A DNA stretch of 64,000 bases. Origin: Planctomycetota bacterium. GTDB taxonomy: Bacteria; Planctomycetota; UBA1135; UBA2386. The stretch lies in the NCBI GenBank assembly GCA_947501605.1, contig CANMWZ010000015.1, positions 1 to 64,000 of the forward strand, given 5' to 3'. Of this stretch, positions 27,729-37,194 are shown in pieces. Below the pieces are notes generated by a model. That model made no database searches. It was not told where the DNA came from and worked only from the letters and a program-made list of their open reading frames with translations. How positions within the stretch are numbered: the stretch's first letter is position 1; the number at the start of each line of letters is the position of its first letter. A program made the position numbers and the translations under genes.

Positions 27729-27860
27729 CCCGAGAACCGCCGCGCCAGTGGCATCGTGCACCGCCGGCGCCCCGCCGCCGGACTACCGTCATCACGGCAA
27801 GATCGGGCGAACGCACTCGGGGCCTTGTCAGTTGCCCCCCGTGCCCCGATCGTACGGCGC

Positions 27861-30170
27861 ATGAACCAACAGAGTTCCCTTGGTCGTCGCGCCGATGCGA
27901 CGGTCTCGCGCCTCGCCTGGGTTGCCGCCTCACTGGTTCCACTCGCTGGAGCAATGGCCCAAGTGCAATGGCGGGAACCGACCGGTGTGGTCCGACTGAC
28001 TGGGCGAACGGGTGTCGCGCTGGCCTACGACCTCACGCGCCAACGCACAGTCGCATTCGGCGGCCTGAACGGCGAGGGCTCCAGCGACGAGACCTGGGAA
28101 TGGAACGGCTCGCTGTGGAGCCAGCTTCTCCCCGCCGTGCGCCCGCCCGCGCGATCGCATCACGCGATGGCATTCGACGTGAACCGCAATCGCATCGTGC
28201 TGTTCGGTGGCGTGCCGACGGGTCCCGCGGCGACGACGCCACTCGGGGACTTCTGGGAATGGGACGGCACGACGTGGACGCAGATCCCTTTCGCCATCGG
28301 CCCGTCGGCGCGCACCGGTGCCTCGATGACGACCGACCTCGTGCGCGGGCGCGTCGTGATGTTCGGCGGCGGCAGCCCCAATCTCTACGACGCGCCCGCG
28401 GCCGACGCCCACTGGGAATGGGACGGCACCAACTGGACGCAGGTGACGGGGACGCCGCCGCCGCGATCGTCCGCGAGCCTTTGCTATGACTCGACGCGCG
28501 GGCGCACGGTGCTGTTCGGCGGCATCGCGCAGTGCTTCGGCTTCTCCTGCCCGACCTTCGCCGACACGTGGGAGTTCGACGGCGTCGCGTGGACGCAGCG
28601 CCTCGTGGCGACGCCGCCGGCGCGTCACTCGGCGATGATGGCATTCGATTGGCAACGCAATCGCGTCGTGTTGACCGGTGGCCAGGGTGGTTGCCAACCC
28701 GCTTGCGGCATCAACTACGACGACACCTACGAATGGGACGGCACGCAGTGGACGCGCAACTTCGCGGCCACACCGCGCCTCACTGCGGCGGGAATGGTCT
28801 ACGACCCCGTCAACTCGAGTTGTGTCGTCTTCGGCGGGACGGCGATCATCCCGCAGCACTCGGGCTGGAACAGCGCCGAGACCTACGGCTTCGACGGCAC
28901 GTCGTGGACCACACTCGCGGCCTCGGCGATGCCGCCGGCGCGCAACGCCGACGCGTTGTGCTACGACGAAGCGCGCGCCGAGACTGTCTGGTTCGGAACG
29001 ACGGAGTCCACCAACCCAGGCGTCGCCGGCACGTTCACGTTCGACGGCACCACCTGGCAGCGGCGCACCCCGCTGGTCACGCCGCCGGCTCGCACCTACC
29101 ACGCAATGGCCTACGACAGCTTGCGTCAGCGCGTGATCTTGTTCGGCGGCCAGGCCAGCAACGGCGCGCTCCTCCGCGACACCTGGGAGTGGGACGGCGC
29201 GAACTGGGCCCTGGTGGCAACGCCGTCGTCGCCGCCGGGCCAGTATCAGCACCAACTGGCGTTCGACAGCGTGCGCAACGTCACCGTGCTCTACCCCGGC
29301 TCGCTCGGCCAGAACCTCGTGCACGAGTACGACGGCCTCACGTGGACGCCGCGCCCGTCGCCGACCACGCCGCCGAACCGCTTCGACGTCGCTCTCGCCT
29401 TCGACAGCCGCCGCGGGCGGACCGTGATGTTTGGCGGCGTGACCCAGTTCGCGCTCCAGGACTGCTGGGAATGGGACGGCGCGAACTGGACCCAGGATCT
29501 CTCGCCCGTTCGTCCGCCTGCTCGAAAAGGTGCGCGCATGGTGTTCGACGACCTTCGCGGTCGCTGCGTGCTGTTCGGCGGCTCCACTTCCAGCAACACC
29601 GTCCTGCAAGACACCTGGGAGTACGACGGCAGCGCCTGGACCCTGCGTCCGAGCACCGAGCTGCCGCCGCGGCGCTCGACCCAAGGAATGGCCTTCGACC
29701 GCGCTCGTTCGCGCACGGTGATGTTCGGCGGGTTCCCGGGCTCCGGTTCGTACGGCCATCTGCAGGACACCTGGGAACTGGTCACCGAGTGCGATCGCGC
29801 CGGCCCCGGCGAAGTCTCGGGCGGTGGCCTGCCGCTCGCGTGCGCCACGCCGCCGCGGATCGGCACGACCTTCTGTCTCAGCTATACCAACCCGTCGCCG
29901 AACGCCGCGGGCCTCAGCTTCCTGCTGCTGACGCCGGGGGCTTGCAGCGGCGCACCGGGGGTCGTGCCGCCGCCGACCGGCTGCGTCGCGAGCTTCCTCT
30001 ACGGTCTGCCGACGGAGGTGTTCGTGCAGATCGGCGGGCCTGCGACGTTCTGCTTCGCCGTGCCGAACAACCCGGTCTTCGTCGGCGCCGCGTTGTGCTT
30101 CCAGGGCTCGTCGCTGGAGACCACCGGGTGCTTCCGCGCCACCGACGGCGTGCAGGTCGTCGTGCAGTGA
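27861..30170 (+). CDS. Exported Kelch-repeat beta-propeller protein (about 12 blades) with a C-terminal domain
   Basis: About 12 repeats of …R.VLFGG…DTWEWDG..W; signal peptide ending AMAQ. Confidence 0.85.
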   Translation: MNQQSSLGRRADATVSRLAWVAASLVPLAGAMAQVQWREPTGVVRLTGRTGVALAYDLTRQRTVAFGGLNGEGSSDETWEWNGSLWSQLLPAVRPPARSHHAMAFDVNRNRIVLFGGVPTGPAATTPLGDFWEWDGTTWTQIPFAIGPSARTGASMTTDLVRGRVVMFGGGSPNLYDAPAADAHWEWDGTNWTQVTGTPPPRSSASLCYDSTRGRTVLFGGIAQCFGFSCPTFADTWEFDGVAWTQRLVATPPARHSAMMAFDWQRNRVVLTGGQGGCQPACGINYDDTYEWDGTQWTRNFAATPRLTAAGMVYDPVNSSCVVFGGTAIIPQHSGWNSAETYGFDGTSWTTLAASAMPPARNADALCYDEARAETVWFGTTESTNPGVAGTFTFDGTTWQRRTPLVTPPARTYHAMAYDSLRQRVILFGGQASNGALLRDTWEWDGANWALVATPSSPPGQYQHQLAFDSVRNVTVLYPGSLGQNLVHEYDGLTWTPRPSPTTPPNRFDVALAFDSRRGRTVMFGGVTQFALQDCWEWDGANWTQDLSPVRPPARKGARMVFDDLRGRCVLFGGSTSSNTVLQDTWEYDGSAWTLRPSTELPPRRSTQGMAFDRARSRTVMFGGFPGSGSYGHLQDTWELVTECDRAGPGEVSGGGLPLACATPPRIGTTFCLSYTNPSPNAAGLSFLLLTPGACSGAPGVVPPPTGCVASFLYGLPTEVFVQIGGPATFCFAVPNNPVFVGAALCFQGSSLETTGCFRATDGVQVVVQ

Positions 30171-30529: not shown

Positions 30530-32134
30530 GTGACCGAGCCCGCCGACAGCCAGCCCGAGACCCTGGACCCCAAGACCCTGGCCGAGCGCGCGCGCACAAC
30601 GATCGCCTTCTTGCAGGAAGTGCTGTCGGATCGCGCGGTCCTCGCCCACCTCGACGACGAGCTGCGCAAGGACCTGCTGCAAGCCGCTGGACGCGTCGCT
30701 CGACCAGACCCATGGCAGAAGCGCGAGCTGTGGCGCGAGATGCGGCGCCAGCGCAAGGCGCAGAAGCGCGCCGAAGACGAAGAGAAACTCTCGTGCACCG
30801 GCATCCGCAAGCTGCGCAAGGAAGCTGTGTTCGTGACACCGCCGCCGCCGCTGCCGGCACCGGTCGCGGCCGGCACCGACCTCGACGAAGCGTTCGCCTC
30901 GGCGGCGACGGCAGCGCCGGCCGCAGACGCAGTCGACGCCCGCCCAGTCGTCCGCGAAGAACGCTACTGCTACGTCTGCAAGGCATCGTTCACCCGGCTG
31001 CACCACTTCTACGACTCGATGTGCCAGCGCTGCGGCGACTTCAACTTCGCGAAGCGTCAGCAGACCGCGGACCTTCGCGGGCGCACCGCCATCGTCACCG
31101 GTGCGCGCGTGAAGATCGGTTACCAAGCGAGCATCCTGTTGCTGCGCGCCGGCTGCTCGGTGATCGCGACGACGCGCTTTCCACACGACGCCGCACTGCG
31201 CTATGCGCGCGAGGTGGACTTCGAGGACTGGCGCGATCGCCTGCAGGTGCACGGTCTCGATCTGCGGCACACACCAAGCGTCGAGGCCTTCGCGCGCCAC
31301 TGCAACGCGACCCTCGACCGACTCGACTTCATCATCAACAACGCCTGCCAGACCGTGCGCCGCCCGACAGGGTTCTATCGCCACTTGATGGACCAAGAGC
31401 GCGAGCCGCTGTCGCTCCTACCCGATGGCGCCCGGCACGTGCTGCGTTCGCATGAGCAACTGCGCTGCCGCACGCTCGAACACGCCGCCGGAACCAGATC
31501 GCTGCCGACTGTGCCACAGCCGCTGCGCGACCACGATGCGCCCGAGTTGTCGCAGCGAGCCTTGCTGGCCGAAGACCTCGTGCACCACGACGGCATCTTC
31601 CCCGACGGCACGCTCGATCAAGACCTGCAACAAGTCGACTTGCGTGGGCACAACAGCTGGCGCATGCCGCTGCACGAGGTCACGACCGTCGAGTTGCTCG
31701 AAGTGCAGTTGGTCAACTCGGTGGCGCCATTCGTGCTCAACGCGCGCCTGAAGCCGCTGATGCAGAAGGTAAAGACGCGCGACAAGCACATCGTCAACGT
31801 GTCGGCGATGGAGGGGCAGTTCTACCGCGCCTTCAAGACCGACAAGCATCCGCACACCAACATGGCGAAGGCCGCCCTCAACATGATGACGCGCACGTCG
31901 GCGCGCGATTACGTGCAGGACGGCATCCACATGAACAGCGTCGACACCGGCTGGGTGACCGACGAAGACCCGGCCGAGATCGCGGCGCGCAAAGTCGAGG
32001 AGCACGGCTTCTCGCCGCCGCTCGACATCGTCGACGGCGCGGCGCGCATCGTCGATCCGATCTTTGCCGGCATCCGCACCGGCACGCACGTGTGGGGTCA
32101 GTTCTTGAAGGACTACGCCCCGACGCACTGGTGA
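30530..32134 (+). CDS. SDR-family oxidoreductase with N-terminal extension and Cys-rich motif
   Basis: IVTGARVKIG, INNA, VNVSAMEG, HPHTNMAKAALNM, NSVDTGW; CYVC…CQRC upstream. GTG start is uncertain. Confidence 0.85.
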   Translation: MTEPADSQPETLDPKTLAERARTTIAFLQEVLSDRAVLAHLDDELRKDLLQAAGRVARPDPWQKRELWREMRRQRKAQKRAEDEEKLSCTGIRKLRKEAVFVTPPPPLPAPVAAGTDLDEAFASAATAAPAADAVDARPVVREERYCYVCKASFTRLHHFYDSMCQRCGDFNFAKRQQTADLRGRTAIVTGARVKIGYQASILLLRAGCSVIATTRFPHDAALRYAREVDFEDWRDRLQVHGLDLRHTPSVEAFARHCNATLDRLDFIINNACQTVRRPTGFYRHLMDQEREPLSLLPDGARHVLRSHEQLRCRTLEHAAGTRSLPTVPQPLRDHDAPELSQRALLAEDLVHHDGIFPDGTLDQDLQQVDLRGHNSWRMPLHEVTTVELLEVQLVNSVAPFVLNARLKPLMQKVKTRDKHIVNVSAMEGQFYRAFKTDKHPHTNMAKAALNMMTRTSARDYVQDGIHMNSVDTGWVTDEDPAEIAARKVEEHGFSPPLDIVDGAARIVDPIFAGIRTGTHVWGQFLKDYAPTHW

Positions 32135-32165
32135 GTGCGCCGATGGCGGTCGCGGTCCGCGCGAG

Positions 32166-33140
32166 TCACTCGACCTTGGTCTGCAGCGCTAGCAGCAGCG
32201 CGCGCGCGCGATCGAGCACCTTGGAGCTGCCTTCGTTCTTGAGCAGCGCGGCCAGCGCCTTCGGCGCGCCATCGCCCTTCTTGCCCCGGAGTTGGTCCTG
32301 GATCTTGTCGAGCTTCTTGTCCAGCGCGACTTCGGCCTTCAGGGCTTCGCCGTCGAACTCGGCGACCATCGGCTGCACCTCGGTGACCCAAGGGGCACGC
32401 TGACCGACGCTGCGAGCAAGCTCCTTGCTCTGCTCCTCGGCCTTCAAGAAGTAACCCTGCGACTTCAGGTTCTCGATCGACTTCTTCGCCGATGCGAAGC
32501 GAGCATCGACCTCTTTCTGCAACTGCGTGCGCTCGTCGCCTTCTGGCAACTCCTCGACTGCGGCCAAGGCGGCGGCGAGGTCGCGCTTGCCGTAGAGCGA
32601 CGCGCGGACCTTGCGTGCACCAGCGCTGGCACCCCAGCCCTTCTTGACCTTGACCAGCTCGGCAGCGATGAGCTCGTCGATCTTCTTGGTGTCCGAAAGC
32701 GGATTGCCCGACCACAGCAGCGTCCCATCAACCCCGATCACACAGGCGTTGGGGATGCCGGGGGCTTCGGGATTCGGCACAAAGGTGCTCGTGCAGGCAA
32801 AGCAGTCATTGCCCGGAAACGTCTTCCACAGGAAGGCTGCGAGCTCGTTCTCATTCGCGCCCTGGACCTCGACCAGGATGCTGACGAGACCGCTCTTGCT
32901 GAGTTCGTGATCGTGTTTGATGGCGCTCGGCACGGAGCCCCCGATGCACGGGCCTCAATGTGTGCCCCAGCGGTCGATGACGACCGGCTGGCCATAGAAC
33001 TCGGACAGGCTTTGACGCCCGTCGCCATTCAAGAACTGCGAGAACGAGAAGTCCGGCATCTTGTCGCCGACCTTGGCGCGCTCTTGCGCGGCCAGCGGCA
33101 GGACGAGGAATGCCAGAGCGATCAGAGTGCGACGATTCAT
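32166..33140 (-). CDS. Probable selenoprotein: exported TlpA/redoxin (thioredoxin-fold) protein with a UxxC motif (in-frame TGA at 32955-32957)
   Basis: ORFs 32955-33140 and 32166-32933 share a frame. Read-through gives …KVGDKMPDF…GQPVVIDRWGTH-U-GPC…GIPNACVIGVDG, 324 aa with a signal peptide. Confidence 0.8.
32922..32954 (-). promoter_or_regulatory. Candidate bacterial SECIS element
   Basis: After UGA: GGCCCGUGCAUCGGGGGCUC-CGUGCC-GAGCGCC. The GCUC/GAGC stem has a loop starting 21 nt after UGA with G at loop position 2. Confidence 0.5.
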
Positions 33141-33258
33141 GGGTGACGATCCAGTCGGAGCAGGCGCGAGAGTCTAGCGATCGAACCCGTGCGACGCAGG
33201 CACCGAGGCCAAATGCCCTGGGGCCGGCGCGAGGTCACCGCTGGCCACCGGGCCAAAG

Positions 33259-34203
33259 TCACTTGGCGTAGCGCCAAGCACCCTTCTGCAAGAACGCGAG
33301 CCACACCTCAGCGGACCAACTCGGCAGCGGGCCCTTGACGATCGGTTCCGGCCTGCCGGCCAGCGCCACCAGCGCCGCCTCCGCACTGGCCCGCTGCACT
33401 TCGTCGTCGGTCTGCAGCAGGTGCCACAACACCAGCGTGTCGCGTGGCATGCGGCAGGTGGCGACCAGGTCCACTGCAAGCTTGGTATCGAGATCCACGC
33501 CTTTGGCGGCGTAGGCGGCAGCTCGATTCACCATCTTGCGCAGCTCGTCGGTGGCGTCGCCAAACAGCGGCAGCGAAGGCCCGGCCAGCGAGAGTCGCAC
33601 CGCGGCGCCCGCCGGTACGACAACGGTACGAGCCTCAGACCCAACGCGGCCAAGACCGTCGTGCACGCGCAGCTCCCCGGTGTGCGTCCCGGGATCCATC
33701 GACAGTTCGCCAAAGCACCGCCGCGCCTGCTCCTCGACCGCAACTTCGCCAAGCTCGGTCTCCACGACTACGAAGGCTGCGCCTTGTCGCGCCGTCTCGT
33801 CAATCTCGACCACGCACGTGCCGCGACGAAGGCGCACGCGCAACTCATCGTCGCGCCAATGGACGAACTCGAGCTCGGCGCCGCCTTGCAACACGACTTG
33901 CCCGAACGGCTCGAGCGGCAGCGTCAGCGATTCCTGCTGCGCCACGAACGTGCGCGAGGAGGAGCCGCGCTGCAGCTTGGTCGCGCGCGACAGCGCCAGC
34001 GCCATCGCGAGCGAGACGAGCATGGCCGCAGCGAGCCACAGCCATGGGCGCAGAGTCGCACGGTGCGACGCGTCCGGCCCGAGCCGTTCGAGCGGCAGCT
34101 CGCAGCCGTCGTGGGCGAGCGGTGACAGCAGATGCTCGAGCGCCACGATCTCGGGATCGGGCGTGCCGGCTCCAAGGAAGAGGTAGTCTTCGTGCTCGTT
34201 CAC
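33259..34203 (-). CDS. FecR-like anti-sigma factor
   Basis: Start overlaps the ECF stop (GTGA); single TM (WLWLAAAMLVSLAMALAL); FecR-like VRLRRG…FVVVETELGEV…LRVHDG. Confidence 0.7.
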   Translation of the reverse strand: MNEHEDYLFLGAGTPDPEIVALEHLLSPLAHDGCELPLERLGPDASHRATLRPWLWLAAAMLVSLAMALALSRATKLQRGSSSRTFVAQQESLTLPLEPFGQVVLQGGAELEFVHWRDDELRVRLRRGTCVVEIDETARQGAAFVVVETELGEVAVEEQARRCFGELSMDPGTHTGELRVHDGLGRVGSEARTVVVPAGAAVRLSLAGPSLPLFGDATDELRKMVNRAAAYAAKGVDLDTKLAVDLVATCRMPRDTLVLWHLLQTDDEVQRASAEAALVALAGRPEPIVKGPLPSWSAEVWLAFLQKGAWRYAK

Positions 34204-34766
34204 GGTAGACCTGCCTCTGCCAGCAAGGGCCGCAACTGCGCCATGCCGCGCACCAAGTTGACGCGCACGGACCCATGCGTGAGACCGGTGCGGGCAGCGA
34301 TCTCGGGACCTGAGAGGCCCTCGACGAGGCGCAGGGTCAGAGTCTCGCGATAGGCCTCGGGGAGCCTTCGGATGCAGGCCAGTGCGCGGGCGGCGGCGGC
34401 GCGCACGGCAAACGCGTCACCCGGTGCATGCTCACGGCCGACCGGTTCGTCGAGCGGCATCGGCTGCGGCCGTTGCTGTCGCGCTCTTAGGCGATCGATG
34501 GCCGCACGTCGCGCCGTGGTGCAGAGCCAGCCAGCGAAGGCACGAGGATCGCGCACTTCGGTCAATCGTTGGAATGCTTGCACGAACACGTCCTGCACAA
34601 GGTCGTCGGCGTCGTCCTCGCCGCACGTCGCGAGCGCGATGCCGTGCACCGTCCGGGCGAACTCGCGGTACAGCACCGCGAACGCCGCGCGGTCGCCCGC
34701 TTGTGCGCGCTGCACGAGTTCTGCGGTGCCAGGGCTTCCCGGCGAGTGCGCGGCGACGTTGGGCAC
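34200..34766 (-). CDS. ECF RNA polymerase sigma factor
   Basis: LVQRAQAGDRAAFAVLY, DDLVQDVF, FAGWL, LPEAYRETLTLR.VEGLSGPEIA. Confidence 0.92.
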   Translation of the reverse strand: MPNVAAHSPGSPGTAELVQRAQAGDRAAFAVLYREFARTVHGIALATCGEDDADDLVQDVFVQAFQRLTEVRDPRAFAGWLCTTARRAAIDRLRARQQRPQPMPLDEPVGREHAPGDAFAVRAAAARALACIRRLPEAYRETLTLRLVEGLSGPEIAARTGLTHGSVRVNLVRGMAQLRPLLAEAGLP

Positions 34767-35146
34767 GTGAGTGCGAAGATACTCGTCACAGCGGAGGCAA
34801 GGCGAGCAGCAGCTCGGCTGCTCGACGCAGCTTGCAGCGTGAGGGGGATCGAGTCGGAATCGGGCTCATGCCGAACCAGACGGCGGCGATCCCGCCAGTG
34901 TTAGCACCGAGTAGACACCGAGTGCCTGACGAAGCGGTGCCGGCAGCGAGCCCGACCTCGGCGGCCTCGGCGGCCGTGCGGTCAACCTCTGCTGCAGGAG
35001 CCCAAGCGCGCGGTGCTTGGCCGCCCTGGTGACGAGGACCCCGCGGCGGCGGCGCCGGAGAGCCAGCACCCGAGTCAAATCGACTCGAGCACTTCAGCCG
35101 CTGGGATTCTTGCGTACTCTCGGCGGGCTCCCGGAGATTCCCCCAC

Positions 35147-35680
35147 GTGTCACGCATCGATGAGACCGCGAGCCCCCAGGCTCGAGCCGACACCACCGGC
35201 GACGCGGCCTTTGCCTTCGTACATCGGCACCAACGCGGCCTTTGGCGCTTCCTGCGCGCTTGCGGCTGCCCCGCACATGCCGCCGACGAAGTGGCGCAAG
35301 ATGCCCTGCTGCTCGCACTCGAGCGGAACGTCGACGATGACGCCGCGCCAGGCTACTTGCGGCAGGCCGCGAAGTTCTTGTGGCTACGCCGAGTGCGGGA
35401 CGAGGGTCGCTCGCACGCGCGCTGGCTCGACGCGGCCGAACAGCTGTGGCAGCAAGACTGCGCCACGGACGCCGGCGACGGGCTCATCGCGGCGCTGCGG
35501 ACCTGCCTCGACGTGCTACCGCCGCGCTCGCGCCTCGCGCTCCAGCGCGTCTACGCCGAAGGCACGAGTCGTGAGACCCTCGCCGCGGAACTTGGCATTG
35601 GCGAGCACGGCGCCAGAACTCTGCTGCAGCGCATCCGCGCCGCGCTCCGTGATTGCATCGAACGACGGCTCGCACCATGA
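35147..35680 (+). CDS. ECF RNA polymerase sigma factor
   Basis: LWRFLRACG…ADEVAQD, LRTCLDVLPPRSR.AL…Y…LAAELG…LQRIRAALRDCIE. Confidence 0.85.
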   Translation: MSRIDETASPQARADTTGDAAFAFVHRHQRGLWRFLRACGCPAHAADEVAQDALLLALERNVDDDAAPGYLRQAAKFLWLRRVRDEGRSHARWLDAAEQLWQQDCATDAGDGLIAALRTCLDVLPPRSRLALQRVYAEGTSRETLAAELGIGEHGARTLLQRIRAALRDCIERRLAP

Positions 35681-37194
35681 CCGACGACGCAAGGGACACG
35701 CGATTGGACTGGGCACTGCGCGAGGCGCTCGGTGCCGAAGCACCGCCGGATCTCGCCCGCGTGACGGTCGCCAGATTTCGCGCAGGCGATGCCGCTCGCG
35801 TGCCGTCGGCAGCAGTGCCACGCCACACGCACTGGCAAGCGGTTGCGGCGCTGCTGCTCGCTTGCTTGGTGGTCGCGACCTTCGCGCTGTGGCCACGCCC
35901 AGCAGAGCCGGCAACGCCGGCGCAAGAACCCGAACCGGTCCAGGTCTACTCACGCGCCGACATCGACGCCTTGCCAGCAACCACGCTCGCTGTCAGTGCG
36001 GTTGGCCTCGACGACTCTGCCTTGTCGGCGCTGCTGCGACTGCGCGAACTACGGTTCCTCGAGATCCGGTACCCCGAAGCGATGGTGCTCGGCCTCGGCC
36101 TGAAGACCATGCCGCCGAAGCAACCACCGTGCATCACGGCCACGTGCTTCGACACGCTGGCGAAGTTGAGCAAGTTGCGCACGCTCCGGATTCGCGGCGC
36201 CCATGCGATCACCGAGGCGTTTCCGTTCGGCGGCAGCGGCGGCGGTCCCGAAGCCATCGCCAACGCCACGATCGGGCACCTCGAACGATTGCCGCTGCTC
36301 GAAGAACTGTGCCTCACTCACTTCGACGTGCCGGCCTACGCGCTCGCCGCGCTGTCTCGGCTCGCAGCACTTCGGCGCCTGGACCTGTCGGCCAACTACG
36401 GTGTCGATGCCGAGGTCGTGGTCGCGCTGTTGCGCTGTACGCGACTCCAGTCGCTCACCCTCGACGCCTGCATGGCGCTTCCCGGCACCGCGATCGCACG
36501 CCTCGCCGAACTACCGCACCTCGAACACCTCGCCGTCGCCAACATCGATGGCATGTCGTGGCGAAGCGGCGGTGGCGACTTCTTGGGGCCGACGACCAAG
36601 GACTACGAAGCACAAGCGCACAGAGCCTATGACCTCGGCGGTTGCGGCGTCACCGATGCAGCGCTGACCGGCCTGTCGCGCGCGAAGTCCTTGCGCACCT
36701 TGTTGATGGCCGAGCCGAGTTGCTCGCTGCTTGGCGTGCGAGCACTGCGCGACTTCCAATCGCTCGAACGACTCGATCTCTTCGGCTTCGGCTCGAGCAC
36801 GACGGAAACCGACGTGCTGGCAGACTCCTTGCCGCCGCTGCTCATGCTCTCCGCATGCGGCGAATTCGACGACTCCTTCTGCAACAAGCTGCGCCGGCGC
36901 CAACCGCGCCTCGAACACTTGGAGCTGCCTGCCTGCTACGCGATCACCGACCAAGGTCTCGCCCAGTTGCTGCGCATCGGCACCCTGCGGCATCTCGACA
37001 TTCGTCAATCGCGCGGTTTGTCTGCGGCAGCGATGCCACTACTCCTCGCCGCGACGCAACTCGAGTACCTCGACCTTCGCCACATCGACTGGGTCACCAA
37101 AGCGCACGTGCTCGAACTGCAACGCGCTCTGCCACGGCTGCGGACGTTGTTGGCCAACGTCGAGGGCCACGAAACCGAACCCAGCGGCCGCTGA
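35677..37194 (+). CDS. Membrane-anchored leucine-rich-repeat protein, putative anti-sigma factor
   Basis: ATGA overlap with the ECF; LDWALRE…APPDL N-terminus; one TM; repeated LxxLxL motifs such as LRRLDLSANYGV and LEHLELPACYAITDQGL. Confidence 0.8.
   Translation: MTDDARDTRLDWALREALGAEAPPDLARVTVARFRAGDAARVPSAAVPRHTHWQAVAALLLACLVVATFALWPRPAEPATPAQEPEPVQVYSRADIDALPATTLAVSAVGLDDSALSALLRLRELRFLEIRYPEAMVLGLGLKTMPPKQPPCITATCFDTLAKLSKLRTLRIRGAHAITEAFPFGGSGGGPEAIANATIGHLERLPLLEELCLTHFDVPAYALAALSRLAALRRLDLSANYGVDAEVVVALLRCTRLQSLTLDACMALPGTAIARLAELPHLEHLAVANIDGMSWRSGGGDFLGPTTKDYEAQAHRAYDLGGCGVTDAALTGLSRAKSLRTLLMAEPSCSLLGVRALRDFQSLERLDLFGFGSSTTETDVLADSLPPLLMLSACGEFDDSFCNKLRRRQPRLEHLELPACYAITDQGLAQLLRIGTLRHLDIRQSRGLSAAAMPLLLAATQLEYLDLRHIDWVTKAHVLELQRALPRLRTLLANVEGHETEPSGR

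Follow-up and report, generated by a model that had tools for sequence, protein, structure and literature searches.

A predicted selenocysteine codon within a redoxin-family gene of a planctomycete that annotation divides in two

Does an in-frame TGA end a short gene, or is it read as selenocysteine (Sec) within a longer one? The question arises in a 64,000-nucleotide (nt) stretch of DNA from a Planctomycetota bacterium (positions 1 to 64,000 of contig CANMWZ010000015.1, assembly GCA_947501605.1), which we refer to in full as the window. On its minus strand, the frame from 33140 to 32166 is open except for one TGA at codon 62 (32957..32955), and the list of open reading frames (ORFs) for the window gives two pieces in this one frame, the first of 61 aa (33140..32955) and the second of 255 aa (32933..32166). 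A first-pass annotation of the same DNA had taken the two pieces for a single frame parted by one TGA, and when we re-derived the layout we arrived at the same arrangement. Read through, the product runs from N- to C-terminus as MNRRTLIALAFLVLPLAAQ, KVGDKMPDF, PVVIDRWGTH-U-GPC, GIPNACVIGVDG and a long helical tail; the redoxin-type KVGDKMPDF, the cis-Pro loop and the helical tail named in that annotation are thus all present in the read-through frame. We conclude that this is very probably one intact gene, with its TGA predicted to be read as Sec, encoding a 324-residue and likely exported thiol-disulfide oxidoreductase of the TlpA/ResA kind that combines a U-G-P-C active site with a C-terminal helical domain.

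A conserved TGA column in a genome with Sec machinery

To determine how the TGA is distributed among relatives, we ran a six-frame search of 41 related genomes, which gave matches in 34 of them. Among the 20 best matches outside the genome itself (E <= 1e-24), 18 carry an in-frame TGA, one of them together with a TAA, and two carry none. A sample of 301 genomes from the phylum yielded 28 that match at E <= 1e-15; their 32 match rows divide into 19 with TGA and 13 without. Down to about 28% identity, the TGA in the translated loci always falls in one column, WG..-U-..C. Tallied over distinct orthologous sequences, a set that includes 29 loci from a species-representative genome collection and 20 fetched stretches, the column reads TGA in 44 cases, Cys in five and Ser in one. 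About 18 full-length homologues (~325 aa) are found in protein databases, and they have Cys at the same position in 17 cases and Ser in one.

The protein is conserved on both sides of this column. Orthologues align over residues 1-324, straight across the TGA, and the positions that are invariant in homologues lie both upstream (N38-Q43, W58 and G59) and downstream (residues 64, 65, 70 and 71). The locus therefore displays the Sec/Cys pairing by which selenoproteins are recognized, an in-frame UGA aligned with Cys in homologues, as well as the pattern expected of bacterial selenoprotein genes that depend on SelB and a selenocysteine insertion sequence (SECIS), in which the UGA is kept in orthologues and the protein is conserved before and after it. 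The first-pass annotation had predicted this, namely homologues with either TGA or Cys at the position and conserved protein flanking it. Because the TGA stands in the same column in 44 sequences and is accompanied by a co-varying hairpin (described below), the observation goes beyond chance.

Nor is the TGA an assembly slip. Nine DNA runs contain all sampled words of the stretch, and the TGA site is covered by contigs from four RNA-library runs (three studies) with no differing letter listed, so that independent DNA runs and contigs carry the TGA, a point on which the earlier reading had been left to stand or fall. One RNA-library contig has one differing letter, at a place that is not listed; one extends across the intergenic stretch into the gene upstream, whereas a different one stops at 33133. 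These contigs speak to presence only, and not to strand, transcript ends or translation.

The genome also encodes what is needed to insert Sec. In the host assembly (4.65 Mb in 89 contigs, 91% complete), we looked for the four genes of the Sec pathway, as had been suggested, and all four are present with scores above their curated cut-offs: selA (470.7 bits), selB (335.2 bits), selD (348 bits) and the tRNA-Sec gene selC (79 bits, anticodon tca). The selA gene adjoins selD directly upstream. The genome's selD (L001:1531, G000:C4) is a selenoprotein gene in its own right, with one in-frame TGA at GSG-U-AAK. Apart from such sites, TGA serves as an ordinary stop in this DNA: among the window's 76 open frames of 300 codons or more, it terminates 57, and it also terminates the redoxin gene.

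A co-varying SECIS-like hairpin and a false start codon

The UGA is followed at once by a hairpin that lies inside the coding sequence, in a region encoding G-S-V-P-S-A. Its stem starts 13 nt after the UGA and its loop, CGUGCC, starts 20 nt after the A of the UGA; the loop is 6 nt long, with G-U at loop positions 2-3. The core of the stem is GCUC/GAGC (4 bp), six of the seven stem positions pair, and there is one G.G mismatch in this genome. The minimum free energy (MFE) of the 20-mer is -9.1 kcal/mol. The criteria quoted for bacterial SECIS (bSECIS) elements in section 5 of PMC13188914 are a loop of 3-9 nt, a stem of 4-16 bp, a G in the first two loop positions, a UGA-to-loop spacing of 16-37 nt and an MFE <= -7.5 kcal/mol; the hairpin falls within every criterion quoted in that section.

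Beyond the fit to this model, the stem co-varies among relatives. Across 19 orthologues, standard pairs occupy 80.5% of pair cells, compared to 59.7 +/- 2.3 in shuffled controls (none of 500 reach the observed value), and six of the seven stem pairs vary on both sides. The covariation score is 0.454, versus 0.093 for shuffled alignments (again 0/500 reach it) and 0.023-0.137 for registers slid by 1-3. RNAalifold returns the same helix when run unguided. With the register fixed, 5.3 of 7 positions are paired in Sec forms, compared to 1.8 of 7 in Cys forms. The loop encodes Val by GTG in 45 of 46 Sec forms, compared to two of five Cys forms. The earlier proposal of a SECIS hairpin just 3' of the UGA, with G at loop position 2, is borne out by these comparisons.

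The stems differ by clade (GCUC/GAGC, UUGC/GCAA, UACGC/GCGUG, UCAUC/GAUGG, GCAUGC/GCAUGC and UCAGC/GCUGG) with the loop constant, and therefore the amino acids around the invariant Val-Pro co-vary with them: the flanking residues are S..S, A..Q, A..R, S..M, A..H and A..L. The nearest known counterpart of this hairpin is the bacterial SECIS consensus, as formalized in the bSECISearch model; an example of such an element is that of E. coli fdhF. Like the bacterial consensus, the planctomycete hairpin has a small apical loop with G-U at positions 2-3, a 20-nt spacing and a stem of 4-7 bp, and it sits in coding sequence; unlike the consensus, its loop CGUGCC and its stem are family-specific, and its binding by SelB is predicted. 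Stable hairpins also occur in the Cys forms L080, L093 and L071, at nt 14-39 after the Cys codon and in other registers than the SECIS; L080 retains a loop on the same GUG. These may be SECIS relics or merely G+C-rich sequence.

The hairpin also accounts for how this family appears in databases. The GTG in its loop, the codon for Val70, doubles as the false start of the 255-aa ORF, and because this GTG is nearly invariant in Sec forms, the family is cut at the same place across databases. Headless entries start MPSAIKHD or VP.AI, and a protein database holds ~95 clusters of ~255 aa beginning MPSAIKHD. What the annotated fragment loses is the active site, together with beta strand 1 and the predicted export signal. 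The gene had been expected to escape standard annotation, and this is what the records of its relatives look like: the three Sec-form NCBI entries that we checked (two of 255 aa, one partial of 199 aa) are all named 'hypothetical protein'.

A likely exported redoxin domain joined to a helical domain

Several methods place the N-terminal part of the protein in the thioredoxin fold. With C written for U, residues 23-93 match the Pfam family Redoxin (PF08534) at 30.5 bits, above the cut-off of 26.6. An AlphaFold2 model built with 32 homologues (mean predicted local distance difference test score, pLDDT, 92.9; predicted template modelling score 0.88) has a strand at 53-58, a helix at 63-83 and strands at 131-135 and 140-145, and the active site begins helix 1. 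The closest structures found by Foldseek for this domain are DsbE (3gl3), ResA (1su9/2h1b), a Bacillus thiol-disulfide oxidoreductase (4nmu) and CcmG (2b1k), with target-normalized TM-scores of 0.67-0.80 over ~145 residues and 14-24% identity; a profile search of PDB sequences recovered redoxin, DsbE, ResA and TlpA chains at E values of 1e-10 to 1e-3. In the model, a CxxC-type motif stands at the start of helix 1, and the cis-Pro loop position is conserved in the alignments, as in thioredoxin-fold oxidoreductases of the TlpA kind. The Pfam, Foldseek and profile matches agree with the TlpA/thioredoxin fold with U-G-P-C to which the protein had first been assigned. A search of NCBIfam matched no selenoprotein-specific model and gave only weak matches to ResA, TlpA and TrxC. 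There is a second CxxC motif in the redoxin domain, C-F-A-C at residues 112-115 (32797-32808); its second Cys is found in at least 90% of close homologues, where the first position is C or A, and both are absent in distant orthologues.

Upstream of this domain, the N-terminus has a basic n-region, a hydrophobic core and then A-Q; the hydrophobic stretch and the A-Q are kept in homologues, and the model has a pLDDT of ~50 over residues 1-20. Judged from this sequence, the selenoprotein is likely exported and probably periplasmic. Like ResA (B. subtilis, 1su9/2h1b), CcmG/DsbE (2b1k, 3gl3) and TlpA (1jfu), it has the thioredoxin fold with the active site and the cis-Pro in the same places, and there is a DsbD in its genome. 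Unlike them, it has Sec for the first Cys and an extra C-terminal helical domain, shares only the 14-24% identity given above, and adjoins no cytochrome c maturation genes: none lie beside the gene among its window neighbours or in the flanks of 28 orthologous loci.

Table 1 Features of the predicted selenoprotein gene and its upstream neighbours.
Feature	Position in window	Strand	Remarks
Whole selenoprotein gene	32166..33140	minus	324 codons plus terminal TGA (32166..32168); Sec codon is codon 62
Predicted Sec-type signal peptide	33084..33140	minus	residues 1-19, MNRRTLIALAFLVLPLAAQ; N-terminus read by eye
Redoxin domain	32691..33074	minus	residues ~23-150; thioredoxin fold, TlpA/ResA/DsbE-like; by Pfam, AlphaFold2, Foldseek and profile
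In-frame TGA, predicted Sec62	32955..32957	minus	first residue of U-G-P-C redox motif (32946..32957), context WGTH-U-GPC
SECIS-like hairpin	32922..32941	minus	GGGGCUC-CGUGCC-GAGCGCC; 5' arm 32941..32935, loop 32934..32929, 3' arm 32928..32922
GTG, Val70 codon in hairpin loop	32931..32933	minus	doubles as false start of 255-aa ORF
Pro130, cis-proline position	32751..32753	minus	GIP-NACVIGVDG; invariant in both alignments; precedes strand 131-135; placed by model and alignment
C-terminal all-helical domain	32169..32690	minus	residues 151-324; TPR-like helical repeat without clear known relative
Upstream neighbour, 314-aa ORF	33259..34203	minus	position alone points to a possible anti-sigma factor (4-nt overlap with sigma gene)
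ECF-type sigma-70 factor gene, 188 aa	34200..34766	minus	Pfam Sigma70_r2 1e-14, Sigma70_r4_2 6.7e-13, Sigma70_ECF 9.1e-5

The C-terminal domain (residues 151-324) is modelled as nine helices with a pLDDT of 96.2. We searched for a known fold and found none beyond a helical repeat resembling tetratricopeptide repeats (TPR). Pfam has no match for the window's domain, and any one Pfam family matches at most one of 44 members (TPR_14 in 1/44). Against the PDB, the best Foldseek E value is 0.28, to the TPR-like proteins IpgC and P58IPK; VIA-align against 48,161 chains gives a best Z of 5.7 over ~50 residues, and its weak rows are TPR proteins. In the ESM Atlas, matches at 0.9 or above belong to the protein's own family only, and those below 0.9 include clusters mixing TPR and Thioredoxin_2. 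The order of the two domains, a thioredoxin-fold domain and then a helical TPR-like one, is also found in the 'chaperedoxin' CnoX/YbbN, a thioredoxin plus TPR protein that is cytoplasmic in the case of CnoX. The resemblance is one of layout only; there is no significant match in sequence or structure (the Foldseek and VIA-align values above).

Searched with a profile of this domain, a set of 1.84 billion cluster representatives gave 550 matches, of which 280 have E <= 1e-10. The best 150 of the 550 comprise 74 of 235-294 aa, 16 shorter fragments and 60 of full length. We read the 74 short representatives as headless Sec forms, because the examples that we inspected start at or near the loop Val-Pro. 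The 60 full-length representatives carry CxxC in 15 cases, SxxC in two and no redox motif in 43. Redox-dead versions of the scaffold are found among proteins P0130-P0262 and also at L041 (G006).

UxxC redoxins as such have been described before. The table in PMC13188914, a 2026 review, lists a 'Redoxin family protein' (PF08534, UxxC) and a 'UGC-containing TlpA family protein' among predicted selenoprotein families, with the UxxC redoxin entries predicted with high confidence. This kind of selenoprotein is therefore already known. Like the Redoxin selenoproteins catalogued there, our protein belongs to the same Pfam family, has UxxC with Sec first, shows Sec/Cys pairing and has its SECIS directly 3' of the UGA. 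Unlike them, as far as their description in that table goes, it has a 175-residue helical C-terminal domain and a predicted N-terminal export signal, and its family is centred on Planctomycetota; it may already be counted there. Two marine planctomycetes with selenoproteins are reported in PMC4807772. In the main texts of PMC13188914, PMC5029168, PMC2398784 and PMC12013277, the string 'Planctomycet' does not occur, nor does 'redoxin' in those of the last three, although the supplements of these papers may list the family. Taken together, we are highly confident that this is a genuine selenoprotein gene, mis-annotated until now, which adds a new member with a private C-terminal domain to a known class.

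Given these data, we asked which other explanations could account for the locus. One concerns the function of the protein and not the reading of its TGA: it could be a peroxidase, similar to peroxiredoxins, instead of a disulfide reductase. Sec-containing peroxiredoxins are catalogued in the table of PMC13188914, and there is a weak match to Pfam AhpC/TSA (PF00578, E 3.6e-4), but at 20.9 bits it stays below the cut-off of 26. The motif is UxxC with a cis-Pro loop and not the PxxxTxx[CU] of peroxiredoxins; orthologues have V, I or K in place of the Thr that precedes Sec by two residues, and no Thr is conserved three residues before Sec. With DsbE, ResA and CcmG as its closest structures, a peroxidase seems improbable.

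A second explanation is that the TGA is a true stop, so that the locus would encode a 61-residue exported peptide and a separate 255-residue protein starting from the GTG at 32933. ORF callers yield exactly these two pieces, and there are the ~95 database clusters of ~255-aa proteins; when selenium is short, some termination at the UGA is to be expected. However, the 255-aa piece would begin within helix 1, without strand 1, an active site or a signal peptide, and the homologues that bear Cys are continuous over the site. Some of the strongest conservation in the protein lies in the 61 residues before the TGA (they include all of the invariant N38-Q43, W58 and G59), and the GTG is held constant by its place in the hairpin loop. 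Two separate products are thus very unlikely.

The UGA could instead be read by a near-cognate tRNA (Trp or Cys), or through a general reassignment of TGA, without involving Sec. The identity of the inserted residue is, after all, predicted. But TGA ends most long open frames in the window (the 57 of 76 counted above) and this very gene, the Cys found at the column in homologues is the classic Sec/Cys pairing, and the genome combines a complete Sec machinery with a co-varying hairpin at SECIS distance; we give this explanation just as little credence as the true stop. Finally, that the TGA is a nonsense mutation or an assembly error in a pseudogene of a Cys-type redoxin, forms of which do exist in the family, is hardly credible given a TGA in 44 distinct orthologous sequences down to ~28% identity, an otherwise intact frame, and the same TGA in independent DNA runs and RNA-library contigs.

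We therefore return to a single gene with Sec at residue 62. In the mechanism that we envisage, SelB with Sec-tRNA(Sec) would bind the hairpin, through the loop G-U, when the UGA is in the ribosomal A site and would insert Sec there, and the precursor would then leave the cytoplasm via the Sec translocon. A substrate disulfide or oxidized thiol would be attacked by Sec62 as the nucleophile, and Cys65 would resolve the adduct, forming a selenenylsulfide with Sec62 that the genome's DsbD could re-reduce; the helical domain may bind the substrate or a partner.

Several points weigh against the single-gene, Sec-dependent oxidoreductase. Sec at residue 62 is predicted from sequence, the signal peptide was recognized by eye at the N-terminus, and the redox role is suggested by fold and motif. 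The scores for the NCBIfam models of ResA (NF002854, 27.3 versus a cut-off of 170 bits) and TlpA (NF047696, 20.2 versus 230 bits) lie far under their cut-offs, and therefore the protein is an orthologue of neither, though it would work like them. Because 43 of the 60 full-length representatives lack a redox motif, the scaffold may have a non-redox role. DsbD is a plausible electron donor to the selenoprotein, a link suggested by its presence in the genome. We discarded the stability of the hairpin as evidence: the DNA is rich in G+C, and when the region was shuffled 500 times, 28% of the resulting sequences folded equally well. The five Cys-form DNAs, a small sample (n=5), are equally stable (mean -11.3 vs -10.7 kcal/mol), in other registers. 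The window's own stem is a 4-bp core with a G.G mismatch. Finally, since the orthologues are kin, the shuffle tests overstate significance. With these points weighed, the core of the first-pass annotation, a 324-aa extracytoplasmic selenoprotein with Sec62, stands; machinery, homologues, hairpin and contigs all agree with it, and export is predicted from the N-terminus.

Gene neighbourhood and the exchange of Sec and Cys

The gene lies 118 bp downstream of the 314-aa ORF at 33259..34203, a gap that we re-measured and that agrees with the value first given. This ORF and the sigma factor gene of the extracytoplasmic function (ECF) type beyond it had been labelled an ECF/FecR-like pair that may control the selenoprotein gene, and neither the FecR-like label nor the proposed control held up. 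In Pfam, the upstream partner matches nothing at E <= 0.01, and a search extended to E 10 brings up SteA-like_C alone (E 0.011), not FecR. In addition, tblastn finds none of the window's sigma factor, putative anti-sigma and downstream short-chain dehydrogenase/reductase (SDR) genes at 47 orthologous loci. For 19 of these loci the flanks searched were 1.5 kb long and for the other 28 they reached up to 2.5 kb; some genomes are represented twice. With the pair beside 0/47 loci, the comparative data do not support control by it, and we dropped this candidate.

We also looked for a conserved partner gene by clustering the ORFs in the flanks of the 28 loci; this produced only a ROK-family neighbour at 9 of the 28 and scattered kinase and FG-GAP genes, and no partner for an operon. 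A scan of 31900-35200 found no promoter-like sites, and three terminator-like sites compared to 2.0 +/- 1.4 expected. The selenoprotein gene looks like a stand-alone unit. Elsewhere in the window, a second sigma-70/ECF-like gene is followed by that of a 513-aa leucine-rich-repeat protein with an N-terminal anti-sigma-like segment (35147-37194, plus strand), and an 804-aa Kelch-repeat protein is encoded downstream (27756-30170, plus strand).

A complete DsbD (DsbD_N, DsbD_TM and a thioredoxin-like domain) is encoded elsewhere in the genome and is followed by a redoxin gene. This DsbD has 785 aa, the gene after it is of the AhpC/Redoxin type, and there are further weak redoxin matches. The region (G000:C9:77707-80889, L100, and C9:80251-82673) looks like an envelope thiol-reduction cluster.

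To follow the exchange of Sec and Cys, we built a maximum-likelihood tree from 76 distinct rows, of which 45 have Sec, 28 Cys, 2 Ser and 1 Gly. Duplicates were left out, as were matches that cover under 230 residues and the rows P0007 and P0020, which repeat rows already derived from loci. On this tree, no fewer than 10 switches between Sec and non-Sec are required, and well-supported branches force seven of them; the mean after shuffling is 24.3. Cys groups are nested within Sec groups at several places. Because the tree is unrooted, it does not give the direction of these changes.

In two relatives, Sec and Cys forms of the family are adjacent (L071, with two matches, and G306:C342:5961-7705, L051). 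The genome under study has a second, distant redoxin-like match with one in-frame TGA (G000:C18:32258-32701). More distant paralogues among the relatives (L042, L043, L045 and L047) have W-U-GPC and a hairpin of their own nearer the UGA.

A broader picture, which we offer tentatively and consider possible but somewhat short of probable, is of a large unnamed Planctomycetota family that joins a redoxin domain to a private helical domain, in its 550 representatives, and whose Sec-bearing core would include the present gene. In this family, Sec would be widespread and probably the older state, and it would have given way to Cys or Ser, or been lost without replacement, on at least 7-10 occasions; the SECIS would dictate the residues that flank Val-Pro; and the envelope selenoproteome of the lineage would be unusually rich and unseen by annotation.

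These results mean that the public records for the redoxin plus helical-domain family are systematically wrong, with 74 of the best 150 cluster representatives for the C-terminal domain being headless fragments. Corrected gene models would give Planctomycetota an exported, probably periplasmic, predicted selenoenzyme. In two respects, the family makes a clean natural data set: an RNA signal in a coding region constrains the protein, and Sec and Cys have been exchanged repeatedly. If the broader picture is true, a freshwater planctomycete lineage would be marked by an unusually rich envelope selenoproteome that is invisible to current annotation.

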